Of a stretch of DNA of 42,888 nucleotides, positions 7,071-41,470 are shown piece by piece; the stretch's first letter is position 1, and each line of letters begins with the position of its first letter. A model generated the notes under the pieces. That model was not told where the DNA came from, searched no databases, and saw nothing but the letters and a program-made list of their open reading frames with translations. The stretch comes from a virus (Duplodnaviria; Heunggongvirae; Uroviricota; Caudoviricetes), in IMG/VR virus record IMGVR_UViG_2734482773_000006, one strand, 5' to 3'. The position numbers and the translations under genes were made by a program.

Positions 7071-7130
7071 TCCTCACGCTCCATAAATGACAAAACCGCC
7101 CGCAGGCGGTTTCACATAAAACATTTTGCA

Positions 7131-7802
7131 TCAGCGACCAATCACCACAACCTGACCACCGTCCCCTTCGTCTGCCGTGCTGATCTCCTGAGAAACCACG
7201 CGAGACCCCACGCGCATTTCCCCGTACAGAACAGGCAGAACATTGCCCTGGGCAACCATGTTATCCAGTGAGGAGAAATAGGTGTTCTGCTTACCGTTAT
7301 CCGTTGTCTGTGTACGGGGAGTTCTGGCTTTCGGTGCCAGCATCTGCGCCACACCACCGAGCACCATACTGGCACCGAGAGAAAACAGGATGCCGGTCAT
7401 ACCACCGGTCCCAATGGCTGCCCCCCATGCTGCAAGGGTGGCTCCGGCGGTAAAGAATGATCCGGCAATGGCGGCAGCCCCCAGGACAATCTGGAATACG
7501 CCACCTGACTTGGCCCCGGCGACTCTGGGAACAATATGAATCACAGCGCCATCAGGCAGAGTCTCATGTAACTGCGCCGTTAACCCGGACGTGCTGACGT
7601 CCCGCCCGGCAATCCGTACCTGATACCAGCCGTCGCTCAGTTTCTGACGAAACGCCGGGAGCTGTGTGGCCAGTGCCCGGATGGCTTCAGCCCCCGTTTT
7701 CACACGAAGGTCGATGCGGCGACCAAATCGTTGTAAATCCCCGTAAAGGCAGATGCGCGCCATGCCCGGTGACGCCAGAGGGAGTGTGTGCGTCGCTGCC
7801 AT
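7131..7802 (-). CDS. I: Tail assembly protein I
   Basis: 223 aa, same length as lambda I; overlaps K by ~100 nt as in lambda. Confidence 0.9.
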   Translation of the reverse strand: MAATHTLPLASPGMARICLYGDLQRFGRRIDLRVKTGAEAIRALATQLPAFRQKLSDGWYQVRIAGRDVSTSGLTAQLHETLPDGAVIHIVPRVAGAKSGGVFQIVLGAAAIAGSFFTAGATLAAWGAAIGTGGMTGILFSLGASMVLGGVAQMLAPKARTPRTQTTDNGKQNTYFSSLDNMVAQGNVLPVLYGEMRVGSRVVSQEISTADEGDGGQVVVIGR

Positions 7803-8443
7803 TTGTCGGTGTACCTCTCTCGTTTGCTCAGTTGTTCAGGAATATGGTGCAGCAGCTCGCCGTCGCCGCAGTAAATTGCGGCGTGATTCGGCACTGATGA
7901 ACCAAAACAGCACAGCAGCACATCGCCCGGCTGTGCCGCTGACAACGGCACCTGATACAGCCCCGTCGCCTCCAGATTATCCAGATAGAGATTCTGGCCG
8001 TTACGCCACCAGTCATCCTCACGATAAAAGTCCGGCATCTCAATCCCCGCCAGATGATAAGCATCCCGGAACAGTGTGTAACAGTCCGTCACACCGTGCT
8101 CAAAGCGCCGCCCGGTGAGATGCGGCACACAGCGGAACTTATGAATCGTCCCCCGGCAGACCAGCCACCACGGCAAATCACTCTGCACCTGCAGCCGCCG
8201 GTCGGCCTCACTCAGCCAGGGCAGACCACCGGGGTGGCTGTGGACCAGCGCCACAATCTCACCCTGCATTTCTGCCTGCAGCCAGTCTTCCGGCGACATA
8301 CGGAAATACGCCTCCGGCTCACCGGAGATATTCACGCAGGGAAAATATCTTTCCCCCTCCGGCGTGCTTACCACGAAGCCGCACGACTCCGCTGGCGCAC
8401 ATCGCCGGGCGTGCGCCAGAATCGCTGATTCTGTCTGTGTCAT
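7700..8443 (-). CDS. K: Tail assembly protein K (JAB/MPN plus NlpC/P60-like)
   Basis: ORF begins MTQTESAILAHARRC; HSH and cysteine motifs; follows L. Confidence 0.9.
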   Translation of the reverse strand: MTQTESAILAHARRCAPAESCGFVVSTPEGERYFPCVNISGEPEAYFRMSPEDWLQAEMQGEIVALVHSHPGGLPWLSEADRRLQVQSDLPWWLVCRGTIHKFRCVPHLTGRRFEHGVTDCYTLFRDAYHLAGIEMPDFYREDDWWRNGQNLYLDNLEATGLYQVPLSAAQPGDVLLCCFGSSVPNHAAIYCGDGELLHHIPEQLSKRERYTDKWQRRTHSLWRHRAWRASAFTGIYNDLVAASTFV

Positions 8444-36523: not shown

Positions 36524-37309
36524 ATGAGTACAGCACTCGCAACGCTGGCAGGGAAGCTGGCTGAACGTGTCGGCATGGATTCTGTCGACCCACAGGAACT
36601 GATCACCACTCTTCGCCAGACGGCATTTAAAGGTGATGCCAGCGATGCGCAGTTCATCGCATTGTTGATCGTCGCCAACCAGTACGGCCTTAATCCGTGG
36701 ACGAAAGAAATTTACGCCTTCCCTGATAAGCAGAACGGCATCGTTCCGGTGGTGGGCGTTGATGGCTGGTCCCGCATCATCAATGAAAACCAGCAGTTTG
36801 ATGGCATGGACTTTGAGCAGGACAATGAATCCTGTACATGCCGGATTTACCGCAAGGACCGTAATCATCCGATCTGCGTTACCGAATGGATGGATGAATG
36901 CCGCCGCGAACCATTCAAAACTCGCGAAGGCAGAGAAATTACGGGGCCGTGGCAGTCGCATCCCAAACGGATGTTACGGCATAAAGCCATGATTCAGTGT
37001 GCCCGTCTGGCCTTCGGATTTGCTGGTATCTATGACAAGGATGAAGCCGAGCGCATTGTCGAAAATACTGCATACACTGCAGAACGTCAGCCGGAACGCG
37101 ACATCACTCCGGTTAACGATGAAACCATGCAGGAGATTAACACTCTGCTGATCGCCCTGGATAAAACATGGGATGACGACTTATTGCCGCTCTGTTCCCA
37201 GATATTTCGCCGCGACATTCGCGCATCGTCAGAACTGACACAGGCCGAAGCAGTGAAAGCTCTTGGATTCCTGAAACAGAAAGCCACTGAGCAGAAGGTG
37301 GCAGCATGA
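36524..37309 (+). CDS. bet: Bet (Red beta single-strand annealing protein)
   Basis: 261 aa, [48 protein letters not shown], lambda Bet. Confidence 0.95.
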
Positions 37310-37986
37310 CACCGGACATTATCCTGCAGCGTACCGGGATCGACGTGAGAGCTGTCGAACAGGGGGATGATGCATGGCACAAATTACGGCTCGGCGTCAT
37401 CACCGCTTCAGAAGTTCACAACGTGATAGCAAAGCCCCGCTCAGGAAAGAAGTGGCCTGACATGAAAATGTCCTACTTCCACACCCTGCTGGCTGAGGTT
37501 TGCACCGGTGTGGCTCCGGAAGTTAATGCTAAGGCGCTGGCCTGGGGAAAACAGTACGAGAACGACGCCAGAGCCCTGTTTGAGTTTACTTCCGGCGTGA
37601 ATGTTACTGAATCCCCGATCATCTATCGCGACGAAAGTATGCGCACCGCCTGCTCTCCCGATGGTTTATGCAGTGACGGCAACGGCCTTGAACTGAAATG
37701 CCCGTTTACCTCCCGGGATTTCATGAAATTCCGGCTCGGTGGTTTCGAGGCCATAAAGTCAGCTTACATGGCCCAGGTGCAGTACAGCATGTGGGTGACG
37801 CGAAAAGATGCCTGGTACTTTGCCAACTATGACCCACGAATGAAGCGTGAAGGCCTGCATTATGTCGTGGTTGAGCGGGATGAAAATTACATGGCGAGTT
37901 TTGACGAGATGGTGCCGGAGTTCATCGAAAAAATGGACGAGGCACTGGCTGAAATTGGTTTTGTATTTGGGGAGCAATGGCGATGA
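37306..37986 (+). CDS. exo: Exo (Red alpha 5'-3' exonuclease)
   Basis: 226 aa, [40 protein letters not shown], lambda Exo. Confidence 0.95.
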
Positions 37987-38405: not shown

Positions 38406-38621
38406 ATGACACCTCAGCAGGAAAACGCCCTTCGCAGCATTGCCCGTCAGGCTAATTCTGAAATCAAAAAAGCCAGACAGCAGTTTCCGGATAAAAACGT
38501 CGATGACATTTGCCGTAGCGTACTGAAGAAGCACCGCGAAACGGTAACGCTGATGGGATTCACACCGACTCATTTAAGCCTGGCAATCGGCATGTTAAAC
38601 GGCGTCTTTAAGGAACGATGA
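38406..38621 (+). CDS. Lambda orf61-like small protein
   Basis: ORF track 38310..38621; probable start at internal MTPQQENALRSIARQ. Confidence 0.6.
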   Translation: MTPQQENALRSIARQANSEIKKARQQFPDKNVDDICRSVLKKHRETVTLMGFTPTHLSLAIGMLNGVFKER

Positions 38622-38719
38622 ACATGAAAAGCAAAATCATCAGGGAGCTACAGGCTCCTTTTTTATTATTCGCATTCACCCTCAAGCGTATTAACCAACA
38701 ATTCAGGGATTAATGGAAG

Positions 38720-38941
38720 ATGGCAGACATCATTGATTCAGCATCAGAAATTGAAGAATTACAGCGCAACACAGCAATAAAAATGCGCCGCCTGAACCAC
38801 CAGGCTATATCTGCCACTCATTGTTGTGAGTGTGGCGATCCGATAGATGAACGAAGACGCCTGGTCGTTCAGGGTTGTCGGACTTGTGCAAGTTGCCAGG
38901 AGGATCTGGAGCTTATCAGTAAACAGAGAGGTTCGAAGTGA
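38720..38941 (+). CDS. DksA/TraR-family C4 zinc finger protein (lambda orf73-like)
   Basis: 73 aa with CxxC...CxxC (CCECGDPI...CRTCASC). Confidence 0.8.
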   Translation: MADIIDSASEIEELQRNTAIKMRRLNHQAISATHCCECGDPIDERRRLVVQGCRTCASCQEDLELISKQRGSK

Positions 38942-39151
38942 GCGAAATTAACTAGAAGCCAAAGATAAAATCATCGCTGAGCAGGAGAAAATCGCTAACG
39001 GAGAAAAGACAGTAAGTCAGTATATGAAAACCGCATGATATCATCAGATAAAAATCGGTCGTAAAGCGAAATATTAATACCAGAACAAACGAGTCGAGGT
39101 AAATTATATTACCTCGATAAATTAACTAAAACTTGCCCGCTATATACTATA

Positions 39152-39754
39152 TCATTCAGTATCATCACGCGCGGTCTGTGCATATGTCACTACCGCACCT
39201 AATATATTAATTTTCTTTTCAACATAGATAATATTATCGTACTCATAATTGCCATACGGATAGCAAATGCGAATATTCTCATGTAGATCGGGGTCATCCA
39301 CCTCAGCTCCAGAACAACTTTTTGAACTACCGGAAGTATACCGATACGGTGCAACATAAGACGATGTCTCTCCAGGCAAAAAATAAGTTAGTGTCGTAAG
39401 GGGTATAATCAGAAAAAATCCTGCAAATATGCACATCCCTGCATAAACCTTAAGGTATGCTGACAGACTCTTCCAGCCTCTTTGTTTTACTATCCCCTTC
39501 TTAACCCAAAACAGAGATAACAGAAAAGCTATTCCCATGCTAAACAGAATGTAATAGTGGGATATACTCTGATTAAGAAACGTGACCCTGTAGATATCTG
39601 CCCGCCACCAGAAGAAAAGGAAAATAAAGATCAGCCCTGAAACTGTCATGCAAATCAAATAAGGATACGAATCTTTTTTCATGTTTAGCGCCCATAAAAT
39701 TTTTCCTGACCCGGACAAATTTACCATCCATTTTTTGCGCAGAAAATAGCTCAT
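39152..39754 (-). CDS. Hypothetical integral membrane protein (three predicted TM helices plus Cys-containing C-terminal domain), AT-rich moron
   Basis: 200-aa ORF on the opposite strand to neighbours; hydrophobic segments LICMTVSGLIFIFLFFWW, YYILFSMGIAFLLSLFWV, VYAGMCIFAGFFLIIPLTTLTYFL; start codon uncertain. Confidence 0.5.
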   Translation of the reverse strand: MSYFLRKKWMVNLSGSGKILWALNMKKDSYPYLICMTVSGLIFIFLFFWWRADIYRVTFLNQSISHYYILFSMGIAFLLSLFWVKKGIVKQRGWKSLSAYLKVYAGMCIFAGFFLIIPLTTLTYFLPGETSSYVAPYRYTSGSSKSCSGAEVDDPDLHENIRICYPYGNYEYDNIIYVEKKINILGAVVTYAQTARDDTE

Positions 39755-39996
39755 TACTTACTGCACAATAATACACAAAATTGCGTAAATTTTTTGCATG
39801 GATTTTAGCTCTTTCAGCCGACATTTAAGGGGTAAATAGCATTTCCTAAAAGCAACTGCACCAACCCAACAGAATGGGCTACCGCTTACGTTGAGAGCAA
39901 AAAAGTGTATAGCAGCAATGAACAGCATCCTCGCACTGACGAGGATTTCTTTTATCTGAACTCGCTACGGCGGGTTTTGTTTTATGGAGATGATAA

Positions 39997-40164
39997 ATGC
40001 ACTTCCGAGTCACAGGTGAATGGAATGGAGAACCATTCAACAGAGTTATCGAAGCCGAGAACATCAGCGACTGCTATGACCACTGGATGCTGTGGGCGCA
40101 GATAGCACATGCAGACGTAACCAATATTCGAATTGAAGAACTGAAAGAACACCAAGCCGCCTGA
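39997..40164 (+). CDS. Small hypothetical protein upstream of xis (lambda orf55-like position)
   Basis: Read by eye, ~55 codons, ATG preceded by GGAGA; below the ORF track threshold. Confidence 0.4.
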   Translation: MHFRVTGEWNGEPFNRVIEAENISDCYDHWMLWAQIAHADVTNIRIEELKEHQAA

Positions 40165-40178
40165 TGGCGGTTTTTTCT
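40156..40178 (+). terminator. Rho-independent terminator-like hairpin between the small ORF and xis
   Basis: GCCGCCTGATGGCGG followed by TTTTTT, read by eye. Confidence 0.45.
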
Positions 40179-40203
40179 TGCGTGTAATTGCGGAGACTTT
40201 GCG

Positions 40204-40422
40204 ATGTACTTGACACTTCAGGAGTGGAACGCACGCCAGCGACGCCCAAGAAGCCTTGAAACAGTTCGTCGATGGGTACGCGAGTGCAGGATATTCCCTC
40301 CTCCGGTTAAGGATGGAAGAGAGTATCTGTTCCACGAATCAGCGGTAAAGGTTGACTTAAATCGACCAGTAACAGGTAGCCTTTTGAAGAGGATCAGAAA
40401 TGGGAAGAAGGCGAAGTCATGA
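40204..40422 (+). CDS. xis: Excisionase Xis
   Basis: 72 aa, MYLTLQEWNARQRRPRSLETVRRWVRECRIFPPPVKDGREYLFHESAV, lambda Xis. Confidence 0.95.
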   Translation: MYLTLQEWNARQRRPRSLETVRRWVRECRIFPPPVKDGREYLFHESAVKVDLNRPVTGSLLKRIRNGKKAKS

Positions 40423-41470
40423 GCGCCGGGATTTACCCCCTAACCTTTATATAAGAAACAATGGATATTACTGCTACAGGGACCCAAGGACGGGTAAAGA
40501 GTTTGGATTAGGCAGAGACAGGCGAATCGCAATCACTGAAGCCATACAGGCCAACATTGAGTTATTTTCAGGACACAAACACAAGCCTCTGACAGCGAGA
40601 ATCAACAGTGATAATTCCGTTACGTTACATTCATGGCTTGATCGCTACGAAAAAATCCTGGCCAGCAGAGGAATCAAGCAGAAGACACTCATAAATTACA
40701 TGAGCAAAATTAAAGCAATAAGGAGGGGTCTGCCTGATGCTCCACTTGAAGACATCACCACAAAAGAAATTGCGGCAATGCTCAATGGATACATAGACGA
40801 GGGCAAGGCGGCGTCAGCCAAGTTAATCAGATCAACACTGAGCGATGCATTCCGAGAGGCAATAGCTGAAGGCCATATAACAACAAACCCTGTCGCTGCC
40901 ACTCGCGCAGCAAAATCAGAGGTAAGGAGATCAAGACTTACGGCTGACGAATACCTGAAAATTTATCAAGCAGCAGAATCATCACCATGTTGGCTCAGAC
41001 TTGCAATGGAACTGGCTGTTGTTACCGGGCAACGAGTTGGTGATTTATGCGAAATGAAGTGGTCTGATATCGTAGATGGATATCTTTATGTCGAGCAAAG
41101 CAAAACAGGCGTAAAAATTGCCATCCCAACAGCATTGCATGTTGATGCTCTCGGAATATCAATGAAGGAAACACTTGATAAATGCAAAGAGATTCTTGGC
41201 GGAGAAACCATAATTGCATCTACTCGTCGCGAACCGCTTTCATCCGGCACAGTATCAAGGTATTTTATGCGCGCACGAAAAGCATCAGGTCTTTCCTTCG
41301 AAGGGGATCCGCCTACCTTTCACGAGTTGCGCAGTTTGTCTGCAAGACTCTATGAGAAGCAGATAAGCGATAAGTTTGCTCAACATCTTCTCGGGCATAA
41401 GTCGGACACCATGGCATCACAGTATCGTGATGACAGAGGCAGGGAGTGGGACAAAATTGAAATCAAATAA
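40400..41470 (+). CDS. int: Integrase Int (tyrosine recombinase)
   Basis: 356 aa, MGRRRSHERRDLPPNLYIRNNGYYCYRDPRTGKEFGLGRDRRIAI, lambda Int; overlaps xis. Confidence 0.95.
   Translation: MGRRRSHERRDLPPNLYIRNNGYYCYRDPRTGKEFGLGRDRRIAITEAIQANIELFSGHKHKPLTARINSDNSVTLHSWLDRYEKILASRGIKQKTLINYMSKIKAIRRGLPDAPLEDITTKEIAAMLNGYIDEGKAASAKLIRSTLSDAFREAIAEGHITTNPVAATRAAKSEVRRSRLTADEYLKIYQAAESSPCWLRLAMELAVVTGQRVGDLCEMKWSDIVDGYLYVEQSKTGVKIAIPTALHVDALGISMKETLDKCKEILGGETIIASTRREPLSSGTVSRYFMRARKASGLSFEGDPPTFHELRSLSARLYEKQISDKFAQHLLGHKSDTMASQYRDDRGREWDKIEIK

Follow-up and report, generated by a model that had tools for sequence, protein, structure and literature searches.

Introduction

In P2-like prophages, the interval from the portal gene Q to the replication gene A has been described as an anti-phage hotspot (Rousset et al., 2022; PMC9122126). 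One of the cassettes catalogued there, system #4, is described as "3 TM" (three transmembrane, TM, helices), has no Pfam assignment and occupies 470 loci in P2-like prophages of Escherichia coli (Table S5B in Rousset et al., 2022; PMC9122126). Here we describe a relative of this cassette in a lambdoid setting. It lies in a 42,888-nucleotide stretch of viral DNA (IMG/VR record IMGVR_UViG_2734482773_000006, hereafter the window, whose first letter is position 1), where a gene on the minus strand reads against the pL early operon. This gene very probably forms a self-contained cassette of the kind called a moron and encodes a small inner-membrane protein with three TM helices and a periplasmic C-terminal domain. 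Tentatively, we propose that the protein excludes superinfecting phages at the step of DNA entry.

The system #4 protein is 51% identical to the protein of the window over 168 residues (E = 2e-56), and the two share three TM helices and a C-terminal domain with the signature SCSGAxVDDPDL...ICYPYGxY. Also, both are single-gene cassettes in an accessory hotspot of a temperate phage. They differ in their location: the system #4 allele lies between gpQ and gpA of P2-like myoviruses, as do the P2-borne homologues reported below, whereas the copy in the window belongs to a lambdoid siphovirus and has its place in the exo-xis region, between orf73 and ORF55/xis. In the available part of the tables of cloned systems, the system #4 sequence is absent (Rousset et al., 2022; PMC9122126).

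Among described exclusion proteins, SieA of phage P22, which blocks DNA injection, appears to be the best architectural analogue and may serve as a working model for the action of the protein. SieA has 162-164 amino acids (aa), against 176 here, and likewise three predicted TM helices in the inner membrane; its gene, which is transcribed in the direction opposite to that of the neighboring gene 16, has an annotated promoter of its own and is described as prophage-expressed. The occurrence of sieA is limited to P22-like prophages, where it stands between genes 16 and 9, and the conserved motif of the protein, FxRYPxEAxxFNK, is predicted to be cytoplasmic (PMC10883804). This motif is missing from the alignment of the present family, in which the conserved domain is predicted to be periplasmic.

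In the annotation of P2, old and tin are genes of lysogenic conversion and phage exclusion that have a transcript start of their own. The Old protein acts as an ATPase/nuclease in the cytoplasm and Tin is soluble, and neither has any relation in sequence or architecture to the protein studied here. The likeness is one of position, as the P2-borne homologues fill the same Q-A interval in the same direction, convergent with the early operon, which parallels the convergence with pL in the window. HK97 gp15 (a moron) and DicB are small prophage proteins that stop DNA entry via inner-membrane sugar transporters; their sizes and topologies differ from those of our protein, and no PHROG or Pfam match links them to it. 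Finally, short NfeD proteins, such as Bacillus subtilis YuaF and E. coli YbbJ, combine three TM helices with a C-terminal OB-fold barrel. Their architecture and size are strikingly similar to those of our protein, with its five-stranded OB-like model. However, no Pfam NfeD match was obtained in 18 family members, and no Band_7/SPFH gene was present in any neighborhood examined.

The gene has been visible since the int-xis sequence of phage 434 in 1991 and is still annotated as a "hypothetical protein", and among the cassettes of the P2 defense hotspot a relative ranks fourth in frequency. Thus, the open reading frame (ORF) has been deposited for decades and its P2-borne relative is catalogued. 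What is new here is the link of lambdoid, P2-like and chromosomal copies into one family, a corrected start, a predicted topology and domain, and a conserved promoter-like element.

A Self-Contained Cassette in the Exo-Xis Region

The end of the window is the left arm of a lambdoid prophage of the 434 type, integrated at attB-lambda, with the host gene ybhC following int. The gene order on the plus strand (Table 1) makes this strand the direction of the pL early operon. In BLASTN against lambda, similarity stops at 38953 and restarts at 39927, and according to the lambda annotation the corresponding interval holds ea22 and ea8.5, so that a 973-bp module has been substituted for both genes. The GC content is 0.38 for 38942-39996 and 0.39 for the ORF discussed below, compared with 0.51 for the window. 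The first-pass annotation of this stretch, made without database searches, had seen an AT-rich gene in the place of ea22/ea8.5, and both points are borne out by these figures.

Within 38942-39996, the ORF 39152..39754 (minus strand, 200 aa) is the sole ORF longer than 83 aa on either strand. From the base composition, we estimate the chance probability of a 200-codon open frame at 38% GC as about 1e-6. The ratio of nonsynonymous to synonymous substitution rates (dN/dS, Nei-Gojobori) was 0.10-0.14 between lambdoid and P2-borne alleles, and 0.2-0.35 among the chromosomal copies of Enterobacter and Pseudescherichia, one near-identical pair excluded. The membrane gene is a real coding gene under purifying selection. 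It had been called the only sizeable ORF before xis. This is correct above 83 aa; the 200-aa length probably has to be revised, as the start is probably at ATG 39682, and one small conserved plus-strand gene, ORF55, does lie between the module and xis.

All non-lambdoid homologues (36-78% identity) begin at the equivalent of residue 25 of the 200-aa ORF, with MKK(D/Y)SYP. Where the window has its first ATG, a Salmonella P2-like copy (L005) reads ATG TAG, and the extension of the E. coli P2-borne copy (L029) contains an in-frame TAA. In addition, a Shine-Dalgarno-like (SD-like) GGxG located 8 nt upstream of ATG 39682 is invariant in seven loci of differing context. In a hand count from the alignment of the protein variants P0021 and P0022, the extension showed 2-3 changes per 24 residues, against about 4-5 in the remaining 176. 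The starts of the homologues, the in-frame stops in relatives and the conserved SD-like element together lead us to take the product as a 176-aa protein beginning at ATG 39682, which is probably the start codon in place of that of the 200-aa ORF. The RefSeq model (WP_001348592.1, hypothetical protein, 200 aa) and the model in the 434 genome record (OL657226; CPT_434_36, "putative membrane protein", 188 aa from a TTG) then probably begin too early, and we suggest a start-codon correction for both.

The DNA upstream of the gene is common to all phage-borne copies and travels with it. At -44 to -48 from the ATG, the motif TGnTAnnnT occurs in the lambdoid copy, in five of the six P2-like copies examined and in a Citrobacter copy; the P2-like copy of Klebsiella michiganensis has TACAAT at the extended -10 position. 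In the same upstream alignment, the motif is missing from the chromosomal copies of Enterobacter, Klebsiella sp. R390 and Pseudescherichia. The conserved arrangement TTTTCx-17 nt-TGnTA(A/T)(A/T)TT resembles an extended -10 promoter, with a predicted transcription start site near 39711, that is, downstream of the two upstream ATGs. Further upstream, direct repeats of ATTGTGCA are perfect in two P2-like copies (L005 and L029), about 80-110 nt from the gene, and degenerate in the window. Carried with the gene between lambdoid and P2-like prophages, these repeats may be the binding site of a regulator. Control by CII was considered, because the 434 record labels one pair of these repeats, as TTGT-N6-TTGT, a "CII site". 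We rejected it: the site matches by pattern only, and by our own estimate several such matches are expected by chance per genome. That the repeat motif is kept in P2-like phages, which to our knowledge have no lambda CII, also argues against lambda CII.

Downstream of the gene, the inverted repeat CGAGGTAAATTATATTACCTCG at 39095-39116 belongs to a hairpin with a 9-bp stem (39094-39102/39109-39117) and a 6-nt loop. On the minus strand it folds with -12.9 kcal/mol (z = -3.5 against shuffles), has a T-rich tail and is listed by the terminator scan; it is likely the terminator of the gene itself. The gene is convergent with pL, and N-antiterminated early transcription would be antisense to it, so that its expression is expected in the lysogen and would be damped during lytic growth.

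A moron is, in the sense reportedly given to the word by Juhala and co-workers in 2000, an autonomous accessory cassette in a temperate phage. The locus combines a patchy presence with sharp junctions, a deviant base composition and a terminator that is predicted to be its own. The moron half of the first-pass reading holds well, including the inverted repeat between the convergent genes: we find an oppositely oriented, AT-rich, self-contained cassette for a membrane protein, the homologues of which are cargo of a second, unrelated hotspot (P2 Q-A), and no homology to a structural phage protein, which would have spoken against that reading. Junctions, composition, self-contained signals, purifying selection and capture into two unrelated hotspots in an old/tin-like orientation strongly support a moron, or lysogenic-conversion, gene. 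We consider the part of the explanation that concerns the cassette, the protein and its topology to be very probable.

Topology and C-Terminal Domain

In Kyte-Doolittle profiles (19-residue windows), three segments exceed 1.6, at residues 29-52, 64-85 and 98-127 in the numbering of the 200-aa ORF. AlphaFold2, run with an 18-sequence alignment, gave a model with a mean predicted local distance difference test score (pLDDT) of 84. It has three long helices, with a short strand in the loop between the first two, and ends in a beta domain of five strands. Modeled alone (pLDDT 89.5), this domain of about 75 residues is a five-stranded OB-like barrel. The three hydrophobic helices and the Cys-containing C-terminal domain of about 70 residues that had been read from the translation are thus recovered by independent means, and the two Cys are found in all homologues examined.

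Over 18 homologues, the mean number of lysines and arginines (K+R) was 4.4 in the loop between TM2 and TM3 and 1.3 in the loop between TM1 and TM2. By the positive-inside rule, this charge bias would place the N-terminus and loop 2 in the cytoplasm and the C-terminal domain in the periplasm. The C-terminal domain is net acidic and contains exactly two Cys, spaced as C-x16-C, in every homologue examined, the most distant included. This invariant pair fits a periplasmic disulfide. The domain is also the best conserved part of the protein, with the motif SCSGAxV(D/E)(D/E)PxL...I(R/K)ICYPxGxY...K(R/K)xNxLGxVV. A lipoprotein was considered and rejected, as the N-terminal Cys is not conserved and there is no lipobox.

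Distribution of the Family

The same DNA, with 98-99.8% identity, is present in phages 434, mEp332 and 2B8, and only in these among sequenced phages; the gene is absent from lambda itself and from most lambdoid phages. In phage 434, the DNA and the protein are 98% identical to those of the window and the flanks are alike, the differences being the annotated starts and an ORF114 before xis. The record M60848, of the 1991 era, has the 5' end of the gene as "ORF-22+". The lambdoid copy with its flanks was found in 825 of 5426 complete E. coli genomes (~15%).

Homologues with 55-78% identity occur in P2-like prophages of E. coli (L029), Salmonella (L004-6, L013-15) and K. michiganensis (L016-18), in each case inside the Q-A interval and directed towards A. 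PADLOC gave zero matches among the neighbors of these P2-borne homologues. More distant orthologues (36-45% identity) occupy a syntenic place on the chromosome of at least six species of Enterobacter, where they lie between a LysR gene, degraded in some, and a GGDEF gene, with an AI-2E gene also in the neighborhood. Where the LysR gene is intact, they begin 16 nt past it. Further non-prophage copies are those of Klebsiella sp. R390 and possibly Pseudescherichia, in which phage markers were checked for and are absent. The syntenic non-prophage copies of Enterobacter indicate that the family is not exclusively a weapon of phage against phage.

The searches describe a small family. Scans of the protein with Pfam, NCBIfam and PADLOC gave no match, the best being DUF6057 (E = 0.18, far below the cutoff), and a Pfam scan of 18 family members returned scattered noise alone, with no immunity family and no NfeD. 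The sequence-profile search of the PDB gave nothing below E = 0.38, and Foldseek against BFVD nothing at E <1e-3. The PHROG family phrog_1416, to which no function is assigned, matches residues 113-200 only (E = 7.1e-51). The protein database search returned 74 proteins, all from Enterobacteriaceae bar one evident contaminant. When 1.84 billion cluster representatives were searched exhaustively with a hidden Markov model (HMM), no more than 61 clusters matched, hence a small family. A long HMM hit, P0122 (3074 aa, with repeats), was judged to be a spurious low-complexity/Cys-motif match.

A 112-aa allele from E. coli P2-like prophages (P0131/P0133), with TM3 and the C-terminal domain and without TM1-TM2, is recorded for 1000 contigs or more. 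This form is either a common pseudogene that has lost its 5' part or a bitopic variant that still functions, and it is probably the reason why phrog_1416 spans the C-terminal half only. A further copy, 100% identical, lies on a 3.6-kb contig (JARKOR010000073.1, L019) of a metagenome-assembled genome labeled "Candidatus Nanosynbacter", together with lambda exo/bet. It is almost certainly a contamination of the bin and not a gene of Saccharibacteria.

Some of the P2-borne homologues have other genes beside them. In four Salmonella loci (L004, L006, L013 and L014; ~7100-7900), the homologue is preceded on its own strand by two small genes without Pfam match, one of 81 or 123 aa and one of 119 aa; L015 has the 81-aa gene only, and both are missing from L005, L016 and L029. 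They could be an optional partner or separate cargo. In K. michiganensis (L016-L018; 4281-7623), the homologue lies beside genes for a 790-aa AAA_16-like protein and a 279-aa protein, neither with a PADLOC match, and this pair may be an uncharacterized two-gene defense candidate.

Proposed Function and Rival Explanations

We propose that the moron cassette 38954-39926, inside the pL early operon and reading against it, would be transcribed in the lysogen from its own extended -10 promoter, with a transcript ending at the hairpin 39094-39117. The 176-aa product would reside in the inner membrane of the lysogen with its N-terminus inside, three TM helices, a K/R-rich cytoplasmic loop 2 and a periplasmic OB-like barrel with a probable disulfide. 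This periplasmic domain might bind a conserved envelope component that incoming phages need for the passage of their DNA across the inner membrane; alternatively, its target could be the incoming ejection or tape-measure apparatus itself. With either target, the genome entry of superinfecting phages would be blocked in the manner of SieA, HK97 gp15 and DicB, to which the protein is unrelated. As the protein has no cytoplasmic domain, its activity must be in the membrane or the periplasm. Also, the periplasmic domain is its best conserved part (identities in alignment A3 versus A2), which points to a ligand that is itself conserved and not to a phage protein that evolves fast. As an explanation overall, cassette plus exclusion mechanism appears to us possible, and somewhat short of probable. 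Superinfection exclusion at the DNA-entry step, acting at the level of the envelope, is the mechanism that we would prefer by analogy with SieA, and this preference is a tentative one.

Several observations weigh against exclusion. The literature on phage 434, mEp332, the exo-xis region and lambdoid hotspots yielded no functional study of the protein or its homologues (HepS, a literature match, is unrelated and was set aside). No defense family of PADLOC-DB v2 was matched at E up to 10, and no homology to SieA was detectable, with an hhalign probability of 0.2%. A generic sigma-70 scan listed no promoter upstream of the membrane gene. The carriers include a siphovirus and myoviruses, the entry routes of which differ, so that no single "self-type" exclusion target is evident. 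The chromosomal Enterobacter orthologues, which have no phage-type promoter, suggest a cellular role. Finally, the P2 hotspot carries non-defense cargo too, namely partition systems and a cytolethal distending toxin, and of eight further P2 systems that were cloned, only three showed activity (Rousset et al., 2022; PMC9122126).

Some of these points lead to another explanation, in which phage defense has no part and the protein serves the fitness or immunity of the lysogen at its envelope. It would act in immunity to bacteriocins or contact-dependent toxins that attack the membrane or the periplasm, in tolerance to envelope stress or in host interaction, and would derive from a cellular gene taken up as lysogenic-conversion cargo, like lambda bor/lom. 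The vertically inherited, syntenic orthologues in at least six Enterobacter species beside LysR, GGDEF and AI-2E genes, together with the other non-prophage copies, speak for this explanation, as do the start of the Enterobacter copies 16 nt after an intact LysR gene and their lack of the phage-type promoter. The strong conservation of the periplasmic domain would be expected for a fixed cellular or toxin target, and the P2 hotspot holds non-defense cargo as well. Colicin immunity proteins, moreover, are typically small inner-membrane proteins with three to four TM helices, or membrane-anchored periplasmic domains with a disulfide. On the other hand, in none of the contexts examined does the gene have one for a toxin or bacteriocin next to it, none of the 18 members scanned matches a Pfam immunity family, and competition between phages accounts at least equally well for the repeated capture into two phage hotspots with the orientation of old/tin. 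We regard such a non-phage envelope role as rather unlikely when taken by itself, and as nearly as likely as phage exclusion.

The same membrane location could also serve abortive infection, the protein sensing an envelope cue and depolarizing or permeabilizing the inner membrane, so that the cell dies before progeny are formed. In known defense systems, a role as suicide effector is the one generally assumed for transmembrane proteins (Rousset et al., 2022; PMC9122126). The gene sits in defense hotspots, and its three TM helices could oligomerize to a pore. However, it is a single gene with no partner common to all contexts, since the lambdoid copy and the loci L005, L016 and L029 lack the two small ORFs found upstream in some Salmonella prophages; the protein has no domain in the cytoplasm that could sense replication or assembly; and it resembles neither RexB nor CBASS 2TM nor any other PADLOC effector. 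The chromosomal copies, seemingly co-transcribed with the LysR gene, argue against a dangerous effector as well, and we find abortive infection improbable. A role in the own cycle of the carrier phage, such as in lysis or its timing, in assisting injection or in regulating lysogeny, is more improbable still. It would agree with the location in the exo-xis region, whose genes orf60a, orf61, orf63, orf73 and ea22 are reported to modulate the lysis-lysogeny decision, and class I holins also have three TM helices. Against it, the gene is oriented against pL, early lytic transcription being antisense to it, and it lies outside the lysis cassette, exo-xis being far from the lysis genes; no holin match was found in Pfam or PHROG, and the predicted N-in/C-out topology with a large periplasmic domain is unlike that of the holin S105. 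Also, the gene is missing from lambda and most lambdoid phages, and its presence in P2-like myoviruses and non-prophage loci means that it is not tied to the biology of one phage.

If phage exclusion is correct, the gene would be a new and very compact defense at the level of the envelope, and would account for some of the content of prophage hotspots that is listed as "unknown". Otherwise, the gene would be an example of non-defense cargo misclassified by guilt-by-location screens. Extending the exclusion hypothesis to the whole family is more speculative, and we hold it to be doubtful: the family would consist of single anti-phage proteins acting at the envelope, with its founding member in 434, which shuttle between lambdoid and P2-like hotspots and have been domesticated in the Enterobacter chromosome. 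Their conserved, disulfide-bonded periplasmic OB-like domain would plug or mask a conserved inner-membrane entry route, so that at least some 15% of E. coli strains would be protected from one class of phages.

Features of the Locus and Minor Observations

The coordinates of the cassette, its signals and the surrounding genes are collected in Table 1.

Table 1. Features of the left prophage arm in the window. Residue ranges are in 200-aa numbering unless stated; CDS, coding sequence; UTR, untranslated region; AF2, AlphaFold2.
Feature	Coordinates	Strand	Evidence or remark
Probable true CDS, 176 aa	39152-39682 (stop codon 39152-39154)	-	Homologue starts, SD-like element, dN/dS
24-codon N-terminal extension of the 200-aa ORF/RefSeq model	39683-39754	-	Probably 5' UTR and promoter, noncoding
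SD-like GGG	39691-39693	-	8 nt 5' of ATG 39682; G-G columns invariant in the 7-sequence upstream alignment
TM helix 1, ~residues 31-51	39602-39664	-	Hydropathy; AF2 helix 5-31 in 176-aa numbering
TM helix 2, ~residues 66-85	39500-39559	-	Hydropathy, AF2
TM helix 3, ~residues 104-126	39377-39445	-	Hydropathy, AF2; K/R-rich loop 2 precedes
C-terminal five-stranded OB-like beta-barrel, predicted periplasmic	39155-39376	-	Two invariant Cys (C-x16-C)
Extended -10 element TGgTAAATT, predicted	39718-39726	-	TG 39726-39725, TAAATT 39723-39718
Weak -35-like TTTTCT, predicted	39741-39746	-	17 nt 5' of -10; TTTT conserved in alignment A4
Three degenerate direct repeats, 10-bp spacing	39761-39790	-	Related to ATTGTGCA; upstream of predicted promoter
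Hairpin, likely intrinsic terminator	39094-39117	-	34 nt past stop codon; then CTCGTTTGTT on minus strand
Substituted module, 973 bp	38954-39926		Lambda BLASTN breaks, lambda annotation, GC 0.381
bet	36524-37309	+	
exo	37306-37986	+	Small exo-xis genes come next
orf73-like gene, DksA/TraR zinc finger	38720-38941	+	Pfam PF01258 1.6e-8, phrog_54, RefSeq annotation; left flank, convergent with membrane gene
tL4 hairpin and T-run, pL operon	39927-39953	+	Hairpin at 39923-39953 annotated t-L4 in M60848; terminator scan; fold -9.5 kcal/mol; right-hand edge of module
ORF55 (lambda p35 homologue)	39997-40164	+	phrog_676 5.5e-40; ORF55 in M60848; right flank
Terminator-like hairpin after ORF55	40154-40173	+	Terminator scan
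xis	40204-40422	+	
int	40400-41470	+	

At the left edge of the module, a remnant of ea22 is left on the plus strand (38938-38955), five codons (GTG AGC GAA ATT AAC) followed by TAG, and marks the left recombination junction. In a search for distant BLASTN matches, the left 200 bp of the module matched solely phages 434, mEp332 and 2B8. The second "putative membrane protein" of the 434 record, a 56-aa ORF at 39758-39928 on the minus strand, is probably spurious: it extends across both the junction with lambda and the tL4 hairpin, and it is missing from the PGAP gene calls. No RNA family of Rfam was found over 38600-40300. On the right side, two terminator-like hairpins stand in tandem on the plus strand closely 5' of ORF55, in lambda-homologous DNA, at 39927-39946 (tL4) and 39958-39977. 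The ORF114 that phage 434 has between ORF55 and xis is missing here, and ORF55 is followed directly by a hairpin and xis, as in lambda (40154-40203).

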